A stretch of DNA of 64,000 bases, from positions 1,568,001 through 1,632,000 of the forward strand of contig CBDBCY010000004.1 of the NCBI GenBank assembly GCA_965203555.1. Direction: 5' to 3'. Both the position numbers and the translations under genes were made by a program. Below are positions 10,855-24,804 of the stretch, piece by piece; position 1 is the stretch's first letter; each line of letters opens with the position of its first letter. This stretch comes from Acidimicrobiia bacterium (lineage in GTDB: Bacteria; Actinomycetota; Acidimicrobiia; Spongiisociales; ZC4RG35). Under the pieces are notes generated by a model. That model was not told where the DNA came from. It saw only the letters and a program-made list of their open reading frames with translations, and did not search any database.

Positions 10855-11097
10855 GTGGCCAGCATCACGGTCCGTAATCTCGATGAGAGTCTGGAGCGGC
10901 GACTCCGCATCCGGGCGGCCCAGAACGGGCATTCCATGGAGCAAGAGGCGAGAGAAATCCTAAGCGAGGCGTTGCGGAAACCTCTGACAGGCAAGGATCT
11001 GGTGGATGCAATTCGTTGGACTTTCGAGCCCCTCGGGGGGGTTGAGTTGGAACTGCCACCCCGCGGGCCCATGCGCGAACCGCCCACATTCGACTGA
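10855..11097 (+). CDS. FitA-like ribbon-helix-helix antitoxin, copy 1
   Basis: ASITVRNLDESLERRLRIRAAQNGHSMEQEAREIL; GTG start after AAGGAGA. Confidence 0.85.
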   Translation: MASITVRNLDESLERRLRIRAAQNGHSMEQEAREILSEALRKPLTGKDLVDAIRWTFEPLGGVELELPPRGPMREPPTFD

Positions 11098-11176
11098 GCC
11101 AGGGCACTGATCATCCTCGACACCAATCCGTTCGATCAAGCGGCGCATTGACTCCGATAGAGCAGGGAGAAGCAAT

Positions 11177-11422
11177 ATGGCCACCATCACAGTGCGCAAC
11201 CTGGACGAAGACCTGAAGCGACGACTCCGCATCCGGGCAGCCCGGAACGGCAACTCCATGGAACAGGAAACCCGGAACATTCTGAGAACGGCCCTCTACC
11301 AGGAACCCTTGACGGGTGCAGACTTGGTGAAAGCGATCCGTGCCCGATTCGAGCCCCTCGGCGGCGTTGAACTGGAGTTGCCGTCCCGCGAGCCCATGCG
11401 CGAGCCTCCCACATTCGATTGA
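11177..11422 (+). CDS. FitA-like antitoxin, copy 2
   Basis: MATITVRNLDEDLKRRLRIRAARNGNSME; directly upstream of a PIN toxin. Confidence 0.9.
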   Translation: MATITVRNLDEDLKRRLRIRAARNGNSMEQETRNILRTALYQEPLTGADLVKAIRARFEPLGGVELELPSREPMREPPTFD

Positions 11423-11431
11423 GCCAGGGCA

Positions 11432-11866
11432 ATGATCATCCTCGACACCAATGTCGTATCCGAACTGACGCGTCCCGATCCGGATATCGGCGTTATCGAC
11501 TGGGTCACCCGGCAAGCACCTTCGAACTTGTACGTCTCGTCCATCAGCGAGGCCGAAATGCGTTACGGTGTCGAGATCATGCCAGCAGGCAAGCGCCGTG
11601 ACAGATTGCGCGCCGAGATCAAGGGAATGCTGCGGGAAGACTTTGCGGGGCGCATCCTTCCCTTCGACAGCAACGCCGCTCGATCCTATGCCGCAATAGC
11701 CGCCGACCGCCGCTCTGCCGGACGCCCCATAAACCAGGCCGACTGCCAGATCGCGGCGATCGCCCATTCGCTGGGAGCATGGCTCGCAACCCGAAACACA
11801 ACCGACTTCGCAGGATGCGGCATCGACGTGATCGATCCCTGGTCGGACACCCGGGTCAGGGACTAA
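11432..11866 (+). CDS. FitB/VapC PIN-domain toxin
   Basis: MIILDTNVVSE, ADCQIAAIA, LATRNTTDF, IDPW. Confidence 0.92.
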   Translation: MIILDTNVVSELTRPDPDIGVIDWVTRQAPSNLYVSSISEAEMRYGVEIMPAGKRRDRLRAEIKGMLREDFAGRILPFDSNAARSYAAIAADRRSAGRPINQADCQIAAIAHSLGAWLATRNTTDFAGCGIDVIDPWSDTRVRD

Positions 11867-12054
11867 CCCGTGAGTCGCCACTCCTTCAACATCCCAACCC
11901 GGCCGGTTACAGATAGCGGGCGTGAAACACTATGCATAGTTCGCGTTCGGCCCGATGGTCGAGACGCAGTCCTACTGTGCACCCCACGTTTCAAAGCAGA
12001 TTCAAGGAACCGGAACAGGGCGTTTTCGGTCGGTCAATAGGCCCTCGGCACCTT

Positions 12055-12429
12055 TCAGCCCACGGCGGGAGCGGAAGGTCGGATCTCTCCCAGCAGGGGA
12101 ACAAGCCCCTCGACGGGATCCCGATAATACTTGAGATACTCCTCCGTACCGCGGCGGTGGGAGTAGGCGAGGCGTTCTCGTTCGCTCTCCGGGTAGCCAC
12201 ACTGGGTGATGATGTCATCCAGGGTTGAGGTCAGATAGTTGAATTTCACCCACCGATCCTCCTGCCGGTGATGAACCCAGAAAGTGGGATCATCGACATC
12301 GTAGGGACCAAACTTCTCCAAGTCATCCGCCCACCTGCTCACCAAAATGCGCTCTTCTTCACCGAGTGGGTAGGGAGGGCACTGGTGACCGGTCTCACCG
12401 TGTTTGGAACTGTCCATGGGAACCCACAT
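12055..12429 (-). CDS. hypothetical protein downstream of the Type ISP cassette array
   Basis: 124-aa ORF with protein-like composition, co-oriented with the RM gene; family not recognised. Confidence 0.45.
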   Translation of the reverse strand: MWVPMDSSKHGETGHQCPPYPLGEEERILVSRWADDLEKFGPYDVDDPTFWVHHRQEDRWVKFNYLTSTLDDIITQCGYPESERERLAYSHRRGTEEYLKYYRDPVEGLVPLLGEIRPSAPAVG

Positions 12430-12813
12430 TAATCCGCCGCTCTGGATTCACTCCTCCCCATATCCCTGTTTGGCTATACCCGTTCCCGGGGTACCGCCCT
12501 GCCGGCGGGATCGACGGTGTGGAGGTCGGGCAGCATCCCCGCCGCCAAAGCCGCGAAACGGGTTCGGTTGGAGGGGCTGGCGATCAGGATGGCCGTCTGG
12601 GCAGGCTTCGGGTGGGTCGGCCCGTCACATGCAGGTCGGTCAGCGTCGTGGTCACGAGTGTCGCGAACGGGAGTTGCTGGTCTCTCATGATCAGGATGGC
12701 GGTCGTCTGGGTGCGCATCGGGTCTGCCGCCCGGTGGCGCACAGGTCGAAGAGACGGTCGGTTGCGATGATCCCGAACGGAAGTTGGCGGGTGAGGCTGA
12801 CCAGGATCGCCGA

Positions 12814-12825
12814 CCCCCCCCCCCC
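12814..12825 (-). repeat. poly-G tract 3 (G12), selects among C5/C6/C7
   Basis: C12 on the + strand immediately before cassette 5. Confidence 0.9.
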
Positions 12826-13067
12826 GGTCGGTTACCGGGGCATCACCCGGGTCTGCTGACCCGGTCCCATGGCGTGCAGGTCCGGAATCAGACCGGTCGC
12901 CATCACCCCGAAGATCGCCATGTTCGACGGCCCGGTCATCGCTATCGCCTGCGGGGAATAGCCCGGCTCGGCTGGTTGACTCCGGCGGCGCTGAGGTCCG
13001 GAAGGCAGGTTGTGGCAAGGGATCCGAAGATCGCCCGGTTGTTCGGGGAGGTGACGACGAACGCCGG

Positions 13068-13077
13068 CCCCCCCCCC
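13068..13077 (-). repeat. poly-G tract 2 (G10), selects C3/C4/bypass
   Basis: C10 on the + strand immediately before cassette 3. Confidence 0.9.
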
Positions 13078-13196
13078 GGTTTATCGTGCCAGACTGCGTG
13101 GTATCACCCGCGTCTGCTGCGACCCCTTGATCGCCGCCAGGTCTGGCAGAGTCGTCGCGGCCAACGCCTGAAAGGTCATGTTCGAGGTCCCCGAGA

Positions 13197-16100
13197 TCAG
13201 GATCGCCGACGGGGTATGACCCGGCAGGCTTGTGATATTCCTCCCCCTTTGAGATCGCAGATCCGAGCGGTGGCGAGGACTGAGAAGATGGTGGAGTTCG
13301 ATCCCGTGGAGACGAGAATTCCCCGAGCCCCCCCCCCCGCTTCCCTATTTGTGCTTTCCTCGCGTGGGAACATCTTGGAAACGGTCTTCACAGACGAGAG
13401 GATGCGGTCATCCTCATACAGCCACAGTTTGGTGAACGGGCGATAGAGCACCTCCCTAACGCGAGATTCGTCAAATATGATCTCCTTGTTCGCTTTCAGG
13501 GCCTGCTTCAAGGTGGCGGTCCATTTGATGGTTTTGAGATTGTCGTTCCTAGTGGCTTGCCGGAAGGTGATTTCACCCTCCTCAACAAAGAACCGCATAT
13601 CTTCATACTCGTCAATGAGCGCCTTGATTCTGGCAATCAGATCGTCCCGAGAAAACGAATACACGTAAGTATCGCAATTGGTTTTCACGCCCGATGCGTG
13701 CTCCGCAACAGCACTACGCTCCTGCTTGTTCGTGGAACAGACCGGCAGCAGCTTCTCAAAGGTACCGTCGGTCAGGTTCACCCAGTCGTGGCGATCGTTG
13801 ACCGGCACCGTCTCGAACTGATCGCTGGTCACGTCCCCCAGTTCCGCCAGCCAGGCGAACTTCTGATCCAAGGTGGAGTATTCGGGTACTTCCGCGTAGC
13901 GGAGAGCGCCGGAGCCGGTCAGGCCCTCCCGTGGATTGCGGACCAGGACGGTGATCTGCACGCCGTTGCGCGATCCCCCACCGAACAGTTTGTCACCCTC
14001 TCGACGAAACTCCTCACCGCTCTTGTAAGCGTCCCCCCGCAGGTTGACCACATAGAGGTCGGTGAATTCGTCGCGTAACGCGGCCCGCATGCCCGCCAGG
14101 GCGGTACCCGTAGCGAGGGAATTGGGATGGATGAACGCCAACACCCCCCCCCCCCGCGGCGCGTCTGGAGTCGCCCAGTCGGTCCGAGGCCCACCGGAAC
14201 GACTTCACATACATATTGCCCGCCGCGTTGCCGCCCGGGGCGCGTCCGGTGACTTCCTTGTGCCGTCTTCCGTAGGTGTCTCTGACCCGTTGTTCGACGT
14301 CCTCATGGACGATGTTCGGGTTGTCGTCCCCGGCAGACTTCTGCCCGGCCGACCAGGGAGGATTCGCCGCTATCACCCGGATGTCCCGCTCGTCCTGGGA
14401 GACCGCCCGTCGAGGGTTCCGGTCCAGGCCGAGCCTTCCCGTCACCGCTCCGGCCAGCGTGTCCCGCAGAACTATGCCCTCGAACGGACGATACCCATCC
14501 TCGAACACTCCGCGAGAGGCGGCGGCCTGCTCGATCTTGAGAGCGGCGATGTAGTAGGCCAGCAGCACCAGATCGTTGGCGTGCAGTTCCTGTTCGTATT
14601 TGCGGACCGCGTCCCGGTCGGATATGAGCGGTTCCCCGTCGGTGTCCGCCAGGGTCAGCAATCTGGAGATGAAAGTGCCGGTCCCGGTGAAGGGATCGAG
14701 TATCTCCACGGCCGGTTCGCTCAGGGAGTAGCCGAAGTGCTTCCGGCACACCGCCTGGGCGCTGCGGAGCATGAAGTCCACCAGGGGAATCGGGGTGTAG
14801 ACGATGCCCAGACGCGCCACCACCTCGGGAACCGCCGATTTGAAGAACCCCTCGTACACGTCCTGGAGGACCTGCAGCTTGGAGGCGACGGGATCGGCGT
14901 CCTCGGAGACATCCTCGAACACCCTGGCAATGCGGTCGTAGGAGCGCTGCAGGGGCTCGATCAGATGATCGAAGTCGAGCCCGGCGTCCCTCAACTCCTC
15001 CATCACCGCGTTGAGGTGTTGGGAAACCGGATTCCGGTCAGCGAAGAGGTGCTCGGCGAAGAAGGCGTCGAACACCGGGATGGTGACCGCATGCTGGGCG
15101 ATCATCTCGGCAGCCTCGGCGCGGCTGAAGGTGGGTATGACGGTTTCTCGGATCTGTTCGGCGAAGGTGTCCAGGGCTTCCGCCGCCCGCCCGTGGCCGG
15201 TTTTGCTCCGAATCTCCGAAAGCACCTTCCGGTAGACCCCGGCGGCCCGGTTGCCCCAGGACGCCCAGTAGTGCCGGTCGCCCACCTGTTCCACCAGCAC
15301 CGACGCTATCTTCGGCAACAGATCGATCTCGGGAAGAGTCGGCTGGTCAGGTTTTCCGGCTGAGGGGTCGTCACCGGTCTTGTCGATGATTCGCAACGGC
15401 GCCTTCTCGGCCAGGCCGGGAGCGTTGACCAAGGCGTCGAAACGCTCGTCGTGGGCGCGGAGTGCCCGGCAGACCCTCCACACCTGTTGGAATGCGGAAC
15501 TTTTCAGAAACTCCTCGGATTGGAGGGTTTCCCCGTCGGGCACCAAAACCGGCACCACGATATAGCCCCTCTGCTTGCCGGGAGCGCGTCTCATCACCCG
15601 CCCCACCGCCTGCACGATATCGATCTCCGACTGACGGGGCGCCAGAAACAGCACGGCGTCCAAGGCCGGGATGTCCACCCCCTCGGAGAGGCAACGGGCG
15701 TTGGTCAGCACCCGGATGGTGCCGGGCGGCTGATCGGCGCCCTTCAACCATCCCACCCGTTCCGACCGCACATAGGCGTTCTGCTTGCCGTCGATGTGTT
15801 CCACGTCCAAGGCCAGCACCGCTCGATTCCGATAATCCTTGGAACGGTCCTGCTGATAGCTGTCGCACAGCCGGCGCCAGTGCTCGGCGACCTTCTTGGA
15901 GTTGACGATCTTGTTGGTGAAAGCGATCGCTCTGCGGCAGTGGTAGTCGGGGTTGAGCATCCCGGCGGCCCGGTCTCTTTCCACCCCCAACGTGGTGGGA
16001 TCGGCCAGGGCGTCCCAGCACCCCACCAACTGCACCCAGTCCTCGGCGTTGAGAATCTGCGACCGGGGCACTTTGCCGGTGGTCTCCCCGTACTGTTTCT

Positions 16101-17361
16101 GGTAATTCTCATAGCTTTCTATGGCATGCTGCTCGCGGTAGGCGATCACCACCACCTGGTAGTCCGACAGCAACTCCGCCTCGATGGCGTCATAGAAACT
16201 CTGCTCGTAGAGAAGCGGCCCATAGAGGAACTCGTCGTCCATGGAATACACCTCCCGCCCTGACCTCCTCCAACCCGCCGCGTAGATCCGCTGGGTGGCG
16301 GTCATGAACAGGCGCCTCCGAGCGTCGAGGCGAGCGGGGTTGTGCACCAGTTGGAAGGGACTCTCCTTTTCTTTGGACCGTTCCACGCCGGTGGTGCGGT
16401 GGGCCTCGTCGCAGATCACCAGATCGAACTCGGGCACGCCCAGGTACTGAGCGTCGCAGACCACCGGCAGCGACTGGTAGGTGGAAAAGACCACGGTCAT
16501 CGCCTCCGGCGCCTCCCGTTTGAGCTTGGAGGCGATCCTCTCGGCGCTGGTGGTGGGTGGCATGGCCAGTTCCATCAGATCGGCGTCCTCGGAGTCCCGG
16601 CCCGACCGGGCGTCCGAGCAGACCGCCAGGTAACGGTGCGGAATCTCCGGATCGCCCTGATATGCCCAGGTCCGCATGGTCTGGCTCATCAGGGCGATGG
16701 AGGGAACCAGATAGAGCACCCGGCCACCCAGACCCACGTTGCGCTCCGCCGCCCACAATCCCACCTCCGACTTTCCCGACCCGCAGGGCATGAGCACCCT
16801 CCCCCGGCTGGAGGGGTGCGAGCCGAACAACCCGTTGCCGATCGCATCCAGCGCTTCTTCCTGGTGCGGGCGGGGAATGTGACGTTCCTCGCCCCAGCGC
16901 AGAGTCTGATCGGGGCGTTCGATAAGATTTCGCCAGTCCCCCACCGGCCAGTTGTCGAGATCGTTCTTGGTGATGATCTGGGTGGAGGCGTCGTTGAGTT
17001 TCTTGCGGGCATTGGCGGAATAGTTGCCGGTGGCCACAAAGATGCGCTCCTCCCACACATCCGCCACCGTGTTGGACAGGAACTTGTTCACCTCGGTGAT
17101 ACTGACCGAACCCGACTTGTAGAACTTGCACTGAATGGCGCACAGCCCGCCCTCTTTCAGTTCACCCACCAGGTCGATGCCGATATCGCCGCCGCCCCGG
17201 CCGGGCCACTCCGACCACAGCCACAGTTTGTCGAAGCGATCCCGGTACTGCGGATTGACCAGGAGGGCTTTGCGGATCAGCTTCTCGAAGGCCCGACCTC
17301 GCTGATACCTCCCGGTGTGATCGGCTCGCAGGCGATCCAGCGCTTCGGCGAGATGCGGCAT
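13197..17361 (-). CDS. Type ISP restriction-modification enzyme (LlaGI/LlaBIII-like: Mrr nuclease, SF2 helicase, N6-MTase, partial TRD); frameshifted at poly-G, probably phase variable
   Basis: FEKL..DIGIDLV..AIQCKFY nuclease; PCGSGKS and DEAH helicase; LGIVYTP, DPFTGTG and NPPW MTase; GVKTNCD, LYRPFTK TRD start. About 1387 aa if the tract is G11. Confidence 0.92.
13328..13338 (-). repeat. poly-G tract 1 (G11), selects C1/C2/bypass
   Basis: C11 on the + strand immediately before cassette 1. Confidence 0.9.
14144..14155 (-). repeat. poly-G ON/OFF tract (G12, OFF) inside the Type ISP methyltransferase domain
   Basis: C12 on the + strand at the junction of ORFs 14014-17361 and 13197-14144; G11 joins them in frame. 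Confidence 0.9.
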
Positions 17362-17452
17362 CAGACTCTTTCTATCAAGTTCTGGCTACTGTCGAATACA
17401 TTGAACACAAGGGTACAATGAGAAGACCGTCCGCATATTTCTCCCGTAGCCC

Positions 17453-18187
17453 ATGTCCGTTCCCCCCGGCACGCTCATCGAACTGCCTCCCGAGCAGCAC
17501 GACCGCGACAACATCACCGACTGGTGCCTTGACCAATTCCGGGACCACTATGGAGACGGGGCCATCACCAAGGACGACATCTGGGAGTATCTGTACGGGG
17601 TGATGCACGCCCCCGACTGGCGGGAGCGATACCGGCACGACCTGCAGCGCAACCTGCCGCGGGTGCCGTTCGCTCCCGACTTCGAGGCATTCGCCGCGGC
17701 GGGCCGTCACCTCATGGATCTGCACATCAACTACGAGACCGTCCCCGAATGGCCGCTTACCTGCCTGGTGGACGATCAGCCCGACGAGGGCGGTTCCGAT
17801 CCCGACGCCTACCGGATCACTCAGAGGAAGATGAGGTGGGGGAAAGACGCAGCCACCAGGACCGCGGACCGCAGCGTGTTCATCATCAACGACCGGTGCC
17901 GGCTGGTGGGCATACCACCCGAAGCCCACGAATACACGGTTTCGGGACGTTCACCGCTGGAATGGGCCATCGACAGCCTGCGCTGGAAACACAACAAGGC
18001 GTCGGGGATAACCGACGATCCCAACGGCTGGCATGCCTGGGCGGACGAGCCGTTCAACCTGATCCGCCACCTCCGCCGCCTCGTCCACATCTCGATCCAC
18101 ACCGCCCGAACCGTGAAGTCCCTGCCGCCTTCGCTGGCGGAACCACAGTCCCCGGGCTCGGCAGACAACCCAACCCCCGAACACTGA
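17453..18187 (+). CDS. stand-alone C-terminal part of the Type ISP specificity domain
   Basis: DNITDWCLDQFR..ITKDDIWEYLYGVMHAPDWRERY..DLQRNLPRVP..LMDLHINYE..GIPPEAHEYTVSGRSPLEW..SGITDDPN: the region that follows the variable segment in single-chain Type ISP enzymes. Confidence 0.88.
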   Translation: MSVPPGTLIELPPEQHDRDNITDWCLDQFRDHYGDGAITKDDIWEYLYGVMHAPDWRERYRHDLQRNLPRVPFAPDFEAFAAAGRHLMDLHINYETVPEWPLTCLVDDQPDEGGSDPDAYRITQRKMRWGKDAATRTADRSVFIINDRCRLVGIPPEAHEYTVSGRSPLEWAIDSLRWKHNKASGITDDPNGWHAWADEPFNLIRHLRRLVHISIHTARTVKSLPPSLAEPQSPGSADNPTPEH

Positions 18188-18436
18188 TGTGATCACCTGA
18201 AAGACACCGGTACTTCCCTTCCCATTTTTGGGCACGGAATACCTCGGTCCGTCTTCACATCCACCAGGACCACTATCGGAATCCCCCCTGTGGTGAACCC
18301 TCCGATTGCCGCGCGACATCTTTGCGAGGAAAGTCCATCTCCACTCCGTACGGCCTGGCAAGGACTCCGCGGATTTCTGTTTCGGAGAACCTCTTCAGCG
18401 CTGAGGCGAGGACCTCGGAAACGCCGAGGGGTGCGA

Positions 18437-18751
18437 TCAAGAAACGCCGGCGGGTATCAGCGCGGTGATCTCTTTCGCCAAGTCGGCCGGCATGAGAGAG
18501 AGGATGGCTGACCGCTTCTGGTCGGACATTCGTGCCAGTCGCCTTGCCGATATGTGAGCCGGCAGCTCACGGGTGTCCCCGATCTGCTCTTCGAGGGAGC
18601 ACTGGTAGAACAGGGAGTCCGCAAGGTCAGCCAACCAGGCGCGCTCTTCCGGAGTGGCAGGCCGACTACGGACATCGTCGAAGGACACATTCGGGTCCTC
18701 ACACAGCGCGATGATCTCCTCATGATCGAGCTTCCCCATAGACCAAAACAT
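18437..18751 (-). CDS. hypothetical protein
   Basis: 104-aa ORF with protein-like composition; unrecognised. Confidence 0.4.
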   Translation of the reverse strand: MFWSMGKLDHEEIIALCEDPNVSFDDVRSRPATPEERAWLADLADSLFYQCSLEEQIGDTRELPAHISARRLARMSDQKRSAILSLMPADLAKEITALIPAGVS

Positions 18752-18867
18752 AGTGGTCGGTCGAGACCGGACAGGCCGGTGGTTGGCTGGCGTCGCAAAT
18801 GTCGCCGCCCAGAGGACCGAACACGGCGTTTTCCCACGCGGTCACAACCGCGCTGTTTTCGGTCTTT

Positions 18868-19185
18868 TTATCGAACCGCGGTCACCTCGAGGTGGACGCC
18901 CTCGTGCTGCTGGATGCGGCTGATGACCTCGAACAGGTTGCGGGCATGGGGATTGCCGTCCGGTCCGAACATGCGCATGAGACTCTTGGGATGCTTATTC
19001 GTCAGAGAGCCAAGCTTCTCGAACCCCATGGTGGCGTTTATGTAGTCGCGCAGTACGATCTTGCCCGCATCTAGGTCCCCCGCCAGCAGACATTCGACAC
19101 TTTCTTTGAGCAATTCTTCTCGAAACGCCGGGTCACCCTCGGCGCGGGCCTGCACAGTCTCTTTGAAGTCACAGGTTAGTGGCAT
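18868..19185 (-). CDS. HigA-like (HI1420-type) addiction-module antidote, HTH
   Basis: LRDYINATMGF..L..MFGPDGNP..NLF; overlaps the upstream toxin gene. Confidence 0.85.
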   Translation of the reverse strand: MPLTCDFKETVQARAEGDPAFREELLKESVECLLAGDLDAGKIVLRDYINATMGFEKLGSLTNKHPKSLMRMFGPDGNPHARNLFEVISRIQQHEGVHLEVTAVR

Positions 19186-19517
19186 CTTTTACCTCCTGTT
19201 TCTTGCGATGCTTGTACTCTTGCCAAAGTTCACGAGCGCTTTCAATGTCCCTTTGCCGGCGCGCTTTGGTCCCACCGCCGAGCAGGATTATCAATGCGCC
19301 TCCGTCTTGGCCGAAATAGACCCGGTAGCCCGGGCCGACTTGTATGCGGCGCTCCAGCACACCGCTGCCGACACCCTTCACATCGGACAGATTTCCCGCC
19401 TCCAGAACGTGCAAGAACCGTCCTCACCCTGGATGCGGCACTGGCGTCGAGCCTGCCGAACCAGCGACCGAACGGACTGCGGCCCCAGTAATCGACGTAT
19501 TCCCTGACCTCCGTCAT
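19169..19517 (-). pseudogene. RelE/HigB (HI1419-type) toxin, frameshifted near 19405
   Basis: MTEVREY..GRSPFGRWF in one frame; EAGNLSDVKGVGSGVLERRI..GPGYRVYFG..LLGGGTK in another. Confidence 0.82.
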
Positions 19518-19579: not shown

Positions 19580-19806
19580 CTTCCGCCCCTCGAGTGGGCG
19601 ATCGACAGCCTGCGCTGGAAGCACGACAAGGCATCAGGAATAACCGACGATCAGAACGGATGGCCTCCTGGACCGACGAACCGTTCAACCTGATCAGACA
19701 TCTGCGGCGGCTCGTGTACGTGTCGGTCGAGACCGCCCGGATCGTGAAATCGCTACCGCTCCCCCTGGAGCCTCAGCAACCCGACTCCTCCGAAGAGAGT
19801 TGCTGA
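19580..19806 (+). pseudogene. 3' remnant of a second Type ISP C-terminal gene
   Basis: Diverged nucleotide copy of ~17950-18150 (PLEWAIDSLRWKHDKASGITDD...DEPFNLIRHLRRLV) with a frameshift. Confidence 0.85.
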
Positions 19807-20941: not shown

Positions 20942-22078
20942 CTATGACGGCCAGAGCAGACCGTCCCTCAGGACCCGGTGAAAGGTGGCCAACGGCCAAA
21001 CCTGGATACCGTCCTCGGACTGGAAGGACCGCCGCCCGTTATAGACCAGAATGCGGCGGGTTAGCCCAGCCAGGCCTGCTATTGCCCGCAGACCCTTGAG
21101 CATGGTGAGGTTGTATTGACTGGTCGATTTGACTCCGATCGCCAGCCGCTCGTTGTCGCGGGTCAGAACGAAGTCGACCTCGGTCTGGGATTGAGCCGGC
21201 GCCCAGTAGGCGATGTCATCGAACAGAGGCTGCCACTGGGCATGGGCGCGAATCGCGCCGAACACCCACCCCTCGAACAGGGCACCGCGTTCCTCGGGGG
21301 TGACCGGCCCGAATTGCCGCTTCACGGCCCGCACCAAATCGGGATCCACCCAGTAGAGCTTTGGACGGCGCCTTTCCCGAACTCTCAACTTGGTCTCCAG
21401 TGCCGACAGTCGGGTGATCATGAGAGTGTCCTCCAGGATTCCCAGATAACCGGCCACCGTCGATCGGGCCACGCGGGCATCCCGGGCCAAGCTCGCCGAG
21501 TTGACAGTCTGGGCATCCATGAGGGCAGCAACCGGAAGGAATCGAACGAACCCCGGGAGGTTCCGCACGGCCGCCTCCGCCCTGACTTCCTCGCGCAGAT
21601 ACAGCTGTGTGTAGCTCTGAAGCACCCGTCGGCGGTCACCGGACGTCCACACCAAAGGGCTGGTTCCGTACCGGAGCGCATCGACGAGTTTGAAGTCCTT
21701 GCCCAGTTCGGCGGCGGTGGGCGGATGCATCTCCACGTGGAGAGCCCGCCCGGCCAGCAGGTTGGTCCCCGCCGTCTTCAGTTTGTGCGCGCTGGAACCC
21801 AGCAAGGCAAACCGGATGCTCCGGGTCTCGATCAGCCTGTGGATCTCGTTGAGCAGACTCGGGATGCGCTGGACCTCGTCGACCACCACCCATTCGCCAC
21901 CCCGTCGTTGTGAAACCAGATCACGGAACAACACCGGATCGGCCAGCAGATCGGTGAACAGGGCTTCGTCCAGCAGGTCGAAATAGATGGCGTCCGGAAA
22001 GGCGGAACGAGCCCACGTACTCTTTCCAACCCCTCTGGGACCGAACAGAAAGAAGCTTCGGTCGGGAATCCCGGTCAA
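20942..22078 (-). CDS. AAA+ ATPase, AAA_14/DUF4143 family
   Basis: GPRGVGKST, VDEVQR, LAGRA, KLYWVD, EVDF C-terminus. Confidence 0.88.
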   Translation of the reverse strand: MTGIPDRSFFLFGPRGVGKSTWARSAFPDAIYFDLLDEALFTDLLADPVLFRDLVSQRRGGEWVVVDEVQRIPSLLNEIHRLIETRSIRFALLGSSAHKLKTAGTNLLAGRALHVEMHPPTAAELGKDFKLVDALRYGTSPLVWTSGDRRRVLQSYTQLYLREEVRAEAAVRNLPGFVRFLPVAALMDAQTVNSASLARDARVARSTVAGYLGILEDTLMITRLSALETKLRVRERRRPKLYWVDPDLVRAVKRQFGPVTPEERGALFEGWVFGAIRAHAQWQPLFDDIAYWAPAQSQTEVDFVLTRDNERLAIGVKSTSQYNLTMLKGLRAIAGLAGLTRRILVYNGRRSFQSEDGIQVWPLATFHRVLRDGLLWPS

Positions 22079-22217
22079 CCTCGGATAGATCGCAGTTGGA
22101 GAGAATTGTGCGTCATACCGTCAAAAAACGCCGATAAGTGACGGCTATGTATGCATTTTGCACAATGCGTGAGGGATCCGGAAGGCCTGATCCGGGTCCC
22201 GGCCACCTGCGTATCTT

Positions 22218-23504
22218 CTAAACCTCCTGAACGAGTCCTTCGCACCGCCTGCGGGTCCCTTCCTCAGTGACTGCCGGTTCTGGACGTTTCCATAGGCGTA
22301 CGATGAACCGATGTTCCTCTTCGATCAAGTCGGGCTCGGTTCCATTGTGAGCCAACATGGCCGGGATCACCTTGCATCGTATCCCCATGCCGCGGGCGTC
22401 CACATACCGATAGTCGCGCATCACGTTGACCAGCGTCTGGTTCCGGGCGTAGCGCATGCCCGATTTCATTCCCTCCAACGTAACGGTGTTGGGCAATCTG
22501 CCCGGGCTGTGAACCTCGAGCCGGTCGGAGAAGATCAACAGGGTTACGTCCGTGCCGACGATGCTGTAATCTCGATGGACCAGGGCGTTGACCAGGATTT
22601 CCCGGACCGCTTCTTCAGGAAACTCCCAACCGTCGATCCGTCTGGGCCCTTCCAAACGAGCAAACGGTGTGGTGTTGCGCCGAACGAAGTCCCACGCCCC
22701 CTCGACAACCCCGGTTTCGACAATCCGGCCGTCCCTGGAAAGCAGAGGAACCAAGGCGCCCTTGATCGACTCGTCCGCCCGCACCGTATAGTCCGGTTCC
22801 TCGCCGGGATAGCATATGGCCCGGATTCCGGACTGCGGCAGGAAGCGTCCCGTGTTCAGCCCGAAGATGAGCATCCCATCGACAGTGGGCACGGTTTTCC
22901 CTCCCGAAACCACCGCAAAACCCAGGTTGCGCAACAGCGTCTCCCATCCGTCAGAACCTTGAGAGGGAATGTCGCCGTAGTCCAAAACGCGGGTGAAGTA
23001 ATCCTGCAACCGGCGATGATCCACATCTTCGATGTCAGCACCCAACACGGGTTTCAGCCCGTAACGAAGCCCTCCCGACTGCTGATACAGTCGTTGCTCC
23101 TCTTCACGGGAGGCGTCTCGAGTGGTCGTCCCCGCTCGTACCTTGGTTATCCACCCACCTCCCTGTTTGACCTTGTAGGGCTTGTCCGGCGCATTCTGAG
23201 CCAGGTAGATGACACCGATGCCGATACCCGACCCCAACTGCAACACCTGCCACGAAGGTATCAGGGCGGGCTGAATATGATCCCTGGCCACTTGCATGAT
23301 CCATTCTTCAGTTTCTTTCGACTCACGGGCAAGACCGGTGATCGTTCCGTCGTCCTCGACCCCCAGAAGGATGTGTCCGCCTTCCAGGTTGAGCAGAGCA
23401 GCCACTTCGGCCGCAAGCTTCCCTGGGCGGACATCGTCACGCTTGAACTCAACAGCAGAACTCTCGCCGTTTCTTATCATCTCCAGCAGGTCGGTTCTGT
23501 TCAT
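22218..23504 (-). CDS. AlbA_2 (Schlafen-like) + HATPase_c_4 domain protein
   Basis: GESSAVEFK..LNLEGGHILLGVEDDG..G; REILVNALVHRDY; SPG; RN..L..G.G. Confidence 0.85.
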   Translation of the reverse strand: MNRTDLLEMIRNGESSAVEFKRDDVRPGKLAAEVAALLNLEGGHILLGVEDDGTITGLARESKETEEWIMQVARDHIQPALIPSWQVLQLGSGIGIGVIYLAQNAPDKPYKVKQGGGWITKVRAGTTTRDASREEEQRLYQQSGGLRYGLKPVLGADIEDVDHRRLQDYFTRVLDYGDIPSQGSDGWETLLRNLGFAVVSGGKTVPTVDGMLIFGLNTGRFLPQSGIRAICYPGEEPDYTVRADESIKGALVPLLSRDGRIVETGVVEGAWDFVRRNTTPFARLEGPRRIDGWEFPEEAVREILVNALVHRDYSIVGTDVTLLIFSDRLEVHSPGRLPNTVTLEGMKSGMRYARNQTLVNVMRDYRYVDARGMGIRCKVIPAMLAHNGTEPDLIEEEHRFIVRLWKRPEPAVTEEGTRRRCEGLVQEV

Positions 23505-23557
23505 GAGCCGGTCCCCGACACCAGGGCGTGTTGACGCTTTTGGGGGGGCAGACTTCT

Positions 23558-24775
23558 TCATTTTCGTTGTTTGATCGGGCGTCGGCGCGTGGATCGGCGT
23601 CGGCCGCTCCGGTACTTAGGTCGGGGTGGGCGTCCCCATTGGGTGGGTGGCGGGCGGAGCCGGTAGGCGCCGGTTGTAGTGCGTTCAACCTGCCAGTCAT
23701 TGTCGTGTACTTTGTGGTGGCATCTGCTGCACAGAAGACACATGTTGTCCAGGTTGGTGGGACCCCCGTCTTGCCAGTGGACAATGTGGTGGGCCTGGCA
23801 CCAGGAGGCTTTGGCGCCGCAACCGATGCAGGCCCGGTCGCGGGCGACCAGCGCGGCCCGTTGGGAACCGCTGGCCGTCCGCCGGGCCCGTCCCAAATCC
23901 AGCGGTACCGACGGTCCCGAGAAGATGGCCGGGAGGACTTGCGCGTCGCAGGCCAACTCGCGTAGCGTCTGGGCGGGGAGGGGGGTTCCGTTCTCTAGGC
24001 GAGGGTTGCCCAACTGTTGGCTGACCGCGTCGTAGTCGGCGATCAACAACAACCTCACGTCCTGAGACCGACCGTCTTTTCCTTGGCGGGTGACCAGTTC
24101 GGCTATGGCGTCGGCCATCCGCTGACCCGCAGTAGCCCGATCGGTGGGGTCCTCTTTGTGCCACAGATCCTTCATCATGTGAGACACCGCCGTCTCGACC
24201 CGGGCACCGGTGACCGGGTCGAAACGCCCATACAACACGGTCATTCCGTCGTCTTGGTCGGTGGTGAGCTTGGCGAACCGGCGGGAACGCTGATGCTCCA
24301 ACTTCGACACACCATCATCCTCTGAACGCTTCTGTTCGTGTTTGCGGACCATGCGGGCGAACTTGTCAGGAGACTGGGAACGGGCACCGTCCAACAATTC
24401 ATTCTCGTCAATGGTTCCCCTCTGGTTGGCGCCCGCCAGGATACGCGCGTTGTCAGCAGAGATCTCTCCCTTTTGGAAACCTTCCCGCGTCTTGGGCAGT
24501 TCCTCCAACCCCCGGGCGGTCTCCACCTCCGACCGGGCCTTCCGACGGCCCAACAGCCCGTCCTCCCGCAATATCGTTTCCACCTTCTCCGTTCCCTGGC
24601 GGCGGCGCAACTCCGACACCGCCTGGGCGCGGACCGCCGCCACTTGGTTCTGGACGCGGATGGTGGACTGTATACGCTGTTTCAGTTCTTCGACCGACGC
24701 CTCCACGACCGGCATGGTGGGTGACAGCAACTTGGCCAGGTTGGCGGACCGCCGACGGTTGACTGCTTGTTTCAT
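23558..24775 (-). CDS. DUF222-HNH endonuclease (13E12/REP13E12-like)
   Basis: QRMADA, LACDA, RDRACIGC..CQAHHIVHWQDGGPTNLDNMCLLCSRCHHKVH; likely leaderless start at ATG 24775. Confidence 0.9.
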   Translation of the reverse strand: MKQAVNRRRSANLAKLLSPTMPVVEASVEELKQRIQSTIRVQNQVAAVRAQAVSELRRRQGTEKVETILREDGLLGRRKARSEVETARGLEELPKTREGFQKGEISADNARILAGANQRGTIDENELLDGARSQSPDKFARMVRKHEQKRSEDDGVSKLEHQRSRRFAKLTTDQDDGMTVLYGRFDPVTGARVETAVSHMMKDLWHKEDPTDRATAGQRMADAIAELVTRQGKDGRSQDVRLLLIADYDAVSQQLGNPRLENGTPLPAQTLRELACDAQVLPAIFSGPSVPLDLGRARRTASGSQRAALVARDRACIGCGAKASWCQAHHIVHWQDGGPTNLDNMCLLCSRCHHKVHDNDWQVERTTTGAYRLRPPPTQWGRPPRPKYRSGRRRSTRRRPIKQRK

Positions 24776-24781
24776 GCCTAC

Positions 24782-24804
24782 AGTATGCACAGGGGGTGTG
24801 ACAA
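24782..24804 (-). promoter_or_regulatory. RecA-NDp/PafBC-like promoter motif
   Basis: TTGTCAC-ACCCCCTGTG-CATACT, 6 nt before the ATG; near-identical motif at 35252. Confidence 0.55.

Follow-up and report, generated by a model that had tools for sequence, protein, structure and literature searches.

Recognition-loop cassettes behind serial poly-G tracts in a split Type ISP restriction-modification locus of an Acidimicrobiia bacterium

A clone is known to alter the specificity of its restriction-modification systems by recombinase-driven shuffling of whole recognition domains and, rarely, by one repeat that toggles between two forms. The first route is that of hsdS invertons and shufflons such as pneumococcal SpnIII (surveys: PMC7672463 and PMC7394358), which keep alternative modules at the locus for multi-state specificity switching within a clone and swap whole target-recognition domains (TRDs) by means of a site-specific recombinase and inverted repeats. 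The second is that of NgoAV, a Type I system of Neisseria gonorrhoeae, where a phase-variable poly-G homopolymer in hsdS1 alters the C-terminal part of the protein and hence its specificity; the account in PMC9577141 (citing Adamczyk-Poplawska 2011) gives it one tract, two active forms (truncated or fused HsdS) and inactive forms. Type III mod and Type IIG phasevarions also carry a coding-region repeat whose unit is not a multiple of three (PMC5909438, PMC4889913). Here we analyze a 64,000-nucleotide (nt) stretch of an Acidimicrobiia bacterium genome (GenBank assembly GCA_965203555.1, contig CBDBCY010000004.1, positions 1,568,001 to 1,632,000), called the window below, in which a Type ISP restriction-modification gene on the minus strand (17361 to 13197) ends in seven paralogous cassettes of ∼40 amino acids (aa), C1 to C7, behind serial poly-G tracts. 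We propose, with a probability of roughly 0.6, that this is a split Type ISP enzyme in which repeat length chooses a module made of a hairpin and Loop VI, and that slipped-strand mispairing would produce heritable, reversible switching of the cassette and of the target at position +3. Coordinates are positions in the window, and tract lengths are counted on the coding strand.

The large minus-strand open reading frame (ORF), 17361 to 14014, encodes 1115 aa, and its frame is thrown by a run of 12 G at 14144–14155 (tract 0), beyond which the gene carries on in another frame as a 315-aa ORF (14144 to 13197). Pfam searches of the large ORF matched Mrr_cat_2 (E 1.9e-22), ResIII (2.9e-14), DEAD (2.5e-10), Helicase_C (3.7e-07) and ISP_coupler (1.3e-22), together with a weak N6_Mtase match (E 0.002; 18.0 bits, under the 20.4 cut-off), and the motifs GSGKS, DEAH and NPPW lie at residues 194, 318 and 1000. 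By these matches and motifs, part 1 of the large subunit (14156–17361, minus strand) contains an Mrr-type nuclease, a superfamily 2 (SF2) helicase, a coupler and an N6-adenine methyltransferase to past motif IV. Part 2 (13339–14143, minus strand) contains the methyltransferase end, which aligns from LlaGI 918 on, and the first TRD half including the equivalent of Loop V (Type_ISP_C match; aligned to LlaGI chain 918–1179 and LlaBIII 1081–1334). The series of Mrr nuclease, SF2 helicase, coupler, gamma-class N6-adenine methyltransferase and TRD is the same as in the Type ISP enzymes LlaGI and LlaBIII, to which there is direct sequence similarity.

To find where the cassettes lie, we combined three-frame translation with a cassette profile, and we mapped the frames that leave each tract. 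Tract 1 (13328–13338, minus strand, G11) precedes C1 (13197–13322 with its stop; profile match 13322–13200, 73.1 bits) and C2 (13081–13209; match 13209–13090), where 11 G leads to C1, 12 G to C2, and 10 G is a bypass. Tract 2 (13068–13077, minus strand, G10) precedes C3 (12942–13067; match 13067–12945) and C4 (12832–12951; match 12951–12835), with 11 G leading to C3, 12 or 9 G to C4, and 10 G again a bypass. Thus, at tracts 1 and 2, the three exit frames run into the first cassette, into the second, or openly to the next tract. Tract 3 (12814–12825, minus strand, G12) is followed by C5 (12691–12813; match 12813–12697), C6 (12584–12703; match 12703–12587) and C7 (12474–12596; match 12596–12477), and its three exit frames end in C5 with 11 G, C6 with 12 G and C7 with 10 or 13 G. 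All seven cassettes are on the minus strand, a stop codon lies 0–2 codons beyond each of the seven matches, and C2, C4, C6 and C7 are each in the −1 frame of the cassette before them. When the entering frames are taken into account, one code applies throughout: a tract of 11 G selects the first cassette and one of 12 G the second, whereas 10 G produces the bypass, which at the last tract is C7. A preliminary description of this DNA, made from the letters alone, had proposed seven cassettes grouped 2+2+3 behind tracts of 11, 10 and 12 G, a single frame code for all tracts, and ORF 12584–13018 as a read-through ending in C6. The translation, the profile and the frame map bear out each of these points.

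Tract 0 was missing from that description's list of tracts. Of its three exit frames, two reach a stop before any cassette, after 42 and 74 codons, and the third enters the TRD, so tract 0 is a plain ON/OFF switch, OFF in the assembly and in frame with 11 or 14 G. Were it ON, the current tract lengths in the window would yield C1. The gene thus contains four in-frame G tracts of 10–12 nt, with a unit that is not a multiple of three, and this is far above the background of the genome: G/C runs number 1571 at 6 nt, 161 at 7 nt, 10 at 8 nt and one at 9 nt, declining tenfold per extra base up to 9, and then 18 at 10–13 nt, 4 of which are in this gene. A six-frame profile search of the 3.4-Mb genome found cassette matches at these seven places only (E 3e-14 to 6.5e-21), so the array is not a chance occurrence.

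We used a profile built from 37 cassettes of the window and six relatives to ask what the cassettes are. Its sole match among 177,635 distinct PDB sequences is to the LlaGI chain, residues 1183–1215 (E 0.0058). The chain index plus 164 gives the numbering of Kulkarni et al. 2016 (PMC4872093), and as a check H1368, G1372 and Q1373 land on H, G and Q. The cassettes therefore correspond to LlaGI 1347–1379, which is made up of the β-hairpin (1347–1358) and Loop VI (1365–1374), and the earlier assignment of this segment to the target-recognition domain stands. According to PMC4872093, Loop VI reads target position +3 in both LlaGI and LlaBIII, with the top-strand base contacted by LlaGI H1368 or the equivalent LlaBIII N1360 and the bottom-strand base by G1372 and Q1373; the β-hairpin packs against Loop VI and touches the DNA backbone, and Loop V reads +5/+6 (PMC4872093). 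In our alignment, the equivalent of Loop V is in the constant part of the large subunit. The residue after the invariant D-L is K in C1, A in C2, S in C3 (C in most orthologues), H in C4, C in C5, and H in C6 and C7, the series found at the position of H1368, and the loop that follows varies in sequence and length. By analogy with that paper, G might be the base read by cassettes that have H at the key position, and A the base read by the less common N types (in relatives G008 and G056); we offer this as a lead only.

The recognition domain itself is cut in two. The 315-aa ORF matches positions 5–150 of the 342 in the Type_ISP_C profile (Pfam, E 5.5e-23), and a 244-aa ORF on the plus strand (17453–18187) matches positions 165–341 of 342 (E 4.8e-50), so two divergent genes each encode part of the domain. 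Each half can be aligned to LlaGI and LlaBIII, the Type ISP enzymes of known structure, as well as to a DrdV-like Type IIL enzyme; searches of NCBIfam yielded no informative family for the TRD parts. The divergently transcribed 244-aa protein, TRD-C, is the second half: its alignment starts at the conserved core helices (LlaGI I1395) and takes in the guide subdomain, spanning LlaGI chain 1231–1401 and DrdV-like 7lo5 824–1026. The polypeptide break thus comes directly after the one module that is present in several copies, from which we infer a reason for the split, namely that a module swappable by frameshift must be C-terminal, with the rest of the domain supplied in trans. The TRD is split in all relatives with arrays, and these enzymes are not single polypeptides as Type ISP enzymes are, so we file this one as a split Type ISP derivative rather than a canonical member. 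It probably works like a Type ISP enzyme, a class marked by ATP-driven translocation, collision-dependent cleavage and methylation of one strand. The TRD-C gene adjoins the ISP gene in all six relatives first examined, being upstream on the same strand in the genome of another family. Over 77 arrays from the wider family described below, the gene order is colinear (ISP-array-TRD-C) in 37, TRD-C-ISP-array on the same strand in 21, divergent in 10 and other in 9, and in three colinear loci inspected, the final cassette's stop and the start codon of TRD-C overlap. An invertible segment, suspected because one TRD half is on the opposite strand, was ruled out: no inverted repeat links the array to 17453, and the split is kept in three gene orders, which argues against an inversion artifact.

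Proteins outside the split arrays show how the parts relate. Stand-alone TRD-C proteins of ∼224–250 aa form 486 clusters at E ≤ 1e-10 and are named hypothetical, 'type ISP restriction/modification enzyme' or 'damage-inducible protein', and ordinary fused Type ISP proteins are 50–54% identical to TRD-C. In P0123, a metagenomic protein of 1122 aa that is 65% identical to TRD-C, one C3-type cassette is fused in frame to the TRD-C part, and because this single cassette runs into TRD-C, cassette and TRD-C are one domain when unsplit. A second metagenomic protein, P0124 (1714 aa), is a fused Type ISP enzyme in which a single cassette is followed by a long low-complexity linker with an S-L repeat and then by the TRD-C part; the linker looks read through a dinucleotide repeat, and the protein may be an intermediate between the fused and split forms. 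Loci L058 and L088 have split systems with one cassette and no array, so the split also occurs without multiplication of cassettes. Two arrays lie within 16 kb at L083, L084, L027 and L093, the second being short or fragmentary at the last two, and these may be cases of one TRD-C serving two large subunits or of tandem systems.

We also modeled the assembly as three chains, each with its own alignment: the first TRD half without a cassette (TRD-N), TRD-C, and the most distal cassette, C7, as a free 40-aa peptide. The model scored 0.92, compared with 0.40 for the best of three controls; among solved complexes 58 of 80 reach that mark, and among mismatched pairs 2 of 110. At least 92% of contacts are common to the runs, with a partner confidence (predicted local distance difference test) of at least 86. 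In the model, the C7 peptide is predicted to dock between the TRD-N and TRD-C halves and to touch both.

Next, we examined whether the cassettes are under selection, using Nei–Gojobori ratios of nonsynonymous to synonymous differences per site (pN/pS) for orthologous cassettes over 4–7 genomes, where the pairs are not independent and C1 was omitted, having only two orthologues. In its own frame, pN/pS is 0.24 for C2 (7 orthologues), 0.44 for C3, 0.24 for C4, 0.25 for C5, 0.25 for C6 and 0.31 for C7, versus 1.07–3.39 in the other two frames; the pooled values are 0.30 in the own frame versus 1.27 and 1.96 in the others. We conclude that C2–C7 are under purifying selection, and in their own frame only.

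For the wider family, we scanned one genome per species with TRD-C, which gave 276 relatives, and studied 79 of these loci. Most are metagenome-assembled genomes labeled Acidimicrobiia, with Candidatus names such as Poriferisocius, Poriferisodalis, Spongiisociaceae and Aldehydirespiratoraceae, and a few are labeled Dehalococcoidia or Caldilineaceae; the family is mostly sponge-associated. Cassettes are found in 72 of the 79 loci, making up 77 arrays of 1–7 cassettes (most commonly five, in 26 arrays, or three, in 20), and the array-bearing loci span many species, closed long-read assemblies included. The layout is kept across loci as a repeat followed by two or three abutting cassettes, each in the −1 frame of the preceding one. 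Single-linkage clustering at 55–65% identity merged nearly all cassettes, so types were defined at 70% identity, where 285 of 348 cassettes fall into six types named by their window equivalents (C7, 63; C3, 57; C4, 57; C2, 46; C5, 39; C6, 23). The types are conserved across families. Among the 76 arrays with at least two cassettes, a type is repeated within the array in 2, versus 46.8 expected by random draws (minimum 35 in 2000 draws, the arrays being kin and not independent). Types are told apart by columns of the hairpin turn and of Loop VI, those aligned to H1368, G1372 and Q1373 among them, which show 90–95% conservation inside a type; mapping the variable positions of C1–C7 onto the DNA-contacting residues of LlaBIII or LlaGI had been put forward as a check of the cassettes' role. 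The residues that are common to all types (columns 3, 4, 14, 18, 24, 25, 35, 38 and 39) form the docking scaffold. A cassette is in frame with an ORF of at least 900 aa in 53 of the 77 arrays, and its type and rank in the array vary by genome (type 3 in 11 arrays, type 4 in 10, type 7 in 9, type 2 in 5, type 5 in 4, type 6 in 2 and others in 12).

The selectors are not confined to poly-G. A homopolymer of at least 7 nt is present in 51 of the 77 arrays, and 69 have a repeat once di-, tetra- and pentanucleotide units are added; across arrays the selector is any FRAMESHIFTING repeat. We counted 152 repeats (62 poly-G, 39 poly-C, 26 tetranucleotide, 22 dinucleotide and 3 pentanucleotide), of which a few 12-nt tetranucleotide matches inside cassettes are false. 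When read directly, L048 has ∼19 AG units and L036 a GGAC-type repeat plus an AG repeat, and spans of 128 nt (CGAC unit) and 95 nt (GGAGC unit) occur in L077 and L080. The three frames leaving a repeat lead to three cassettes in 54 cases, to two cassettes and a read-through in 47, to one cassette, a read-through and a stop without a recognized cassette in 19, to the next repeat in all frames in 13, and to two cassettes and a dead frame in 13; the remaining 6 fall in five rarer classes, two of which stop without a cassette in all three frames. Different repeat units or lengths stand at the same place in loci whose flanks are 89–97% identical, and this recurrence of unrelated repeats at one position points to selection for frameshifting itself.

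Where no repeat intervenes, the second cassette is in the −1 frame of the first in 190 of 194 pairs, with a median distance between matches of 0, and where a repeat intervenes, the frame steps are spread 23, 29 and 18. The junction is formed by a conserved word (direct repeat family D3) that in one frame encodes the end of a cassette and its stop and in the next frame the first residues of the following cassette. Its copies are 107 and 110 nt apart, both 2 modulo 3, so that tandem copies take the three frames in turn, which fits the maximum of three cassette outcomes per repeat. Because the cassettes abut in successive −1 frames, each stop lying over the initial codons of the cassette that follows, a frameshifting repeat placed before them has three possible outcomes.

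Among close relatives, matches to the 315-aa part were found in 9 of 61 related genomes, the window's own included, and the same gene with an array is present in five genomes of the same genus and one of another family. The ternary frame layout is kept in the five, and the bypass frames are open in the orthologous arrays, where stops would have spoken against the proposal. In four of these genomes, the first array tract lies inside a half-cassette, and its third outcome is a tail of 9–11 residues that ends the protein right after that half-cassette. The cassette reached also differs: C1 closes the main ORF in G006, whereas in G009 and G007 the read-through continues as far as C5. The layout that the preliminary description had asked to be sought in related genomes is thus present, in the five same-genus genomes and, as repeat plus cassettes, in 69 of 77 arrays elsewhere.

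The tracts differ in length at the level of DNA. For tracts 0, 1, 2 and 3, the lengths are 12, 11, 10 and 12 in the window, 10, 11, 9 and 11 in G006, 10, 10, 10 and 12 in G009, and 10, 10, 10 and 11 in G007; G008 has 11, 10 and 10, and G015 has 10, 10 and 9 before its contig ends. Tract 0 is 10 or 11 in the same-genus relatives. Eleven public runs carry parts of the stretch, all as Logan contigs and none on record as RNA. In these, tract 0 is 12 in X1, 11 (the in-frame length) in X2, which has the same organism label and comes from another sample, and 10 in X3, a related strain from a sponge metagenome; tract 3 is 11 in the X1 and X4 contigs versus 12 in the window. Tract length, whose invariance would have spoken against the proposal, differs among relatives and among run contigs of the same organism, and the run-contig differences agree with unstable tracts without proving heterogeneity within a population. 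For strain-level comparison of tracts, no locus pair at ≥95% identity was found among the loci compared, the closest being 89–97% identical over ∼0.9–1.6 kb, and a scan of metagenome contigs gave one locus at 73% identity.

Taken together, these results suggest how a split enzyme of this kind would work. The large subunit, with its nuclease, helicase, coupler, methyltransferase and first TRD half, would end in one of seven ∼40-aa modules, each supplying the β-hairpin and Loop VI of the TRD. The product of 17453–18187 would assemble with the large subunit and complete the TRD, and the split would let any C-terminal cassette complete the domain. An inner repeat would give cassette 1, cassette 2 or read-through, and the last repeat one of three cassettes. 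Changes in tract length by slipped-strand mispairing at replication would switch a lineage between cassettes, heritably and reversibly, and tract 0, within the methyltransferase, would turn the whole enzyme ON or OFF. A clonal population could in this way keep several restriction and methylation specificities rotating against phage without a recombinase. For the family as a whole, we consider a broader proposal evenly balanced: that this split Type ISP family, common in sponge-associated Acidimicrobiia, was passed to other symbiont phyla; that frame serves as address, serial repeats picking up to seven Loop VI modules (three per repeat), each with a different base preference at +3 and perhaps +2; that a clone rotates its specificity free of any recombinase; and that the TRD split evolved to make the module C-terminal.

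Several points weigh against the proposed switching of specificity. The change of specificity itself rests on homology, and a sudden change would risk self-restriction. Since a single position is read by Loop VI, the number of distinct targets is at most seven, and C4, C6 and C7 share H at the H1368 position. Across the family, 24 of 77 arrays have no cassette in frame with a long ORF and 8 of 77 have no repeat by the pattern used, and the compared genomes are kin, which makes the array counts interdependent. An open bypass frame is weak evidence by itself, because off-frames are frequently open in this G+C-rich gene (the genome is 62% G+C): over 1066 codons, the +2 off-frame of the ISP ORF contains only 7 stops. 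Bypass products would also place an out-of-frame linker of up to ∼240 aa between the TRD-N half and the cassette. The docking model may echo the solved LlaGI, LlaBIII and DrdV-like structures, and its custom alignments are outside the calibration of the model. Finally, the run contigs have a depth of 2–7, where a one-base homopolymer difference may be erroneous, above all one confined to a single contig at a depth below 5.

The same observations can be set against other explanations. Repeats of this length can slip during transcription, and with tracts of 10–27 nt and repeats of up to 128 nt, the selectors here are long enough for it. The choice might thus be made mainly at the level of RNA or protein, where a slipping polymerase or ribosome would give a mixture of isoforms per genotype and a constitutively multi-specific pool, which would also ease the self-restriction problem; a parallel is the frame-dependent leaky expression from out-of-frame (AG)n repeats described for a Mycoplasma bovis mod gene in a 2026 preprint (10.64898/2026.04.01.715767). 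We consider this unlikely as the main explanation because tract lengths, and hence the in-frame cassette, differ at the DNA level between genomes and samples, which is what heritable switching leaves behind, and because free mixing of frames would leave an ON/OFF tract 0 with little purpose. Both modes could coexist. Similarly unlikely, in our view, is that the cassettes are selected by repeats and only tune activity, stability or TRD-C assembly (a graded ON/weak/OFF) or act as decoy ends, with an unchanged DNA target. The docking-scaffold residues common to all types and the H that C4, C6 and C7 have in common would suit such a role, but the type-defining residues align with the hairpin turn and base-contacting Loop VI positions, arrays that collect different types (with duplicates in 2 of 76) suit a repertoire better than a dimmer, and tract 0 already gives a separate ON/OFF switch.

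Exchange of cassettes by recombination, whether by gene conversion, deletion between repeats or an invertase, with the repeats incidental, has more to overcome. The window cassettes are direct repeats that are 40–50% identical at the protein level, and array content and order vary among genomes, so recombination has reshaped arrays over evolutionary time. As a means of switching, however, recombination leaves the strict −1 stepping (190 of 194) and the recurrent unrelated repeats ahead of groups unexplained; the best inverted-repeat arms in 11000–19500 are 17–30 nt with 70–94% complementarity, none linking the array and the TRD-C gene, and no recombinase family was found among the neighboring ORFs scanned around the locus. 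We judge it very improbable. That the array is junk or artifact, either because a tandem duplication is decaying where a broken gene ends or because homopolymers were misassembled, is close to untenable. The gene is indeed out of frame at tract 0 in the assembly, and homopolymer lengths are error-prone in assemblies, but this explanation is already contradicted by purifying selection on C2–C7 in their own frames, by a layout found in 72 of 79 loci of many species with closed long-read assemblies among them, and by types conserved across families.

The surroundings of the locus add a few further observations. Between the divergent start codons is a 91-nt spacer (17362–17452), presumably the promoter region; this assignment is by position, and a sigma-70 consensus scan of 12200–18400 gave no promoter-like sites. 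The same interval has two terminator-like sites versus 3.3 expected. On the plus strand at 19586–19782, there is a remnant of a second TRD-C copy, in two adjoining pieces in different frames that match residues 168–193 (92% identity) and 195–234 (72%) of the 244-aa protein, without an adjoining large subunit. Just downstream of the array is a 128-nt direct repeat (family D1; 11000–11127 and 11325–11452, 82% identical, 325 nt apart), and the ORFs near it, 11111–11881 and 12055–12429, have no Pfam or NCBIfam match. Farther away at 20942–24790 (minus strand), downstream of a ketol-acid reductoisomerase, are ORFs with AAA_14/DUF4143, with Schlafen AlbA_2 and HATPase_c_4, and with DUF222 and HNH, and these three defense-like ORFs may be a small defense island near the restriction locus.

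Elsewhere in the window's genome (G000), there are 14 further G/C tracts and four long di- or tetranucleotide repeats (loci L101–L114, on the contig labeled C4, which is not the cassette). Among them are a helicase plus N6_Mtase/MmeI_Mtase ORF with a C11 run (L102), an Eco57I-type methylase with a C10 run and a 36-nt AG repeat (L104), a DUF499 ORF with a C11 run (L106), an Eco57I/N6_Mtase ORF with GTCT and GACT repeats (L113) and an Eco57I-type ORF with a 32-nt CT repeat (L114). Since long repeats are found in at least four other restriction-modification-type genes of the same genome, the principle may extend beyond Type ISP, and at the L104 and L114 repeats, ORFs overlap that might represent comparable alternative C-termini. 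A G12 tract also lies where a GPP34 plus cytochrome-P450 ORF overlaps an acyltransferase ORF (L108:400–3763; G000:C4:2326344–2329707); an association of the GPP34 family with sponge symbiosis in Actinobacteriota is reported in PMC11706023.

If the cassettes do change the base that is read at one target position, they would amount to a ready-sorted natural library in which base preference can be related to the sequence of Loop VI. This would bear on the open problem of a recognition code for Type ISP enzymes and of their engineering, the aim set out in PMC4872093, and it would provide a functional reason for the split gene, as a module swappable by frameshift must be C-terminal. It would also mean that uncultured sponge symbionts in phage-rich water run repeat-based bet-hedging of their defenses on a scale so far described mainly in host-adapted pathogens. 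For annotation, such genes are called as broken ORFs and hypothetical proteins, and motif callers for methylomes would meet mixed motifs.

How, then, does the locus compare with the systems described above? LlaGI and LlaBIII each consist of one polypeptide whose Loop VI is fixed, whereas here two genes share the TRD, the break falling just after Loop VI, and seven frame-addressed copies of the module stand behind repeats. P0123, which has a single C3-type cassette at the same place, a TRD-C part 65% identical to that of the window enzyme and no array, shows the domain before it was split and multiplied. Among repeats that change specificity, NgoAV is the nearest precedent; in contrast to the locus here, it is described without alternative modules in overlapping frames, serial tracts or a split domain. 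Tract 0 works identically to the repeats of the Type III mod and Type IIG phasevarions, but those switches are binary, whereas at the array each of the three frames leaving a repeat either yields a product or runs on to the following switch. The nearest precedent with many states is the recombinase-driven hsdS systems. Whole TRDs are swapped there, and here repeat length selects a 40-aa loop element; all cassettes are on one strand, and around the locus there is no convincing inverted repeat and no recombinase family in the ORFs scanned, in keeping with the earlier suggestion that slippage would suffice without a recombinase. The preliminary description knew of no comparable system, and the literature we searched likewise contained no account of serial repeat-selected recognition cassettes in overlapping frames, and none of a Type ISP enzyme divided between genes. 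Phase variation of restriction-modification systems by repeats is already known; the architecture is what a specialist would not expect. The locus suggests a third route to altered specificity within a clone: a multi-state switch that is compact, needs no recombinase, makes use of every reading frame after a repeat and chains its repeats into a decision tree.

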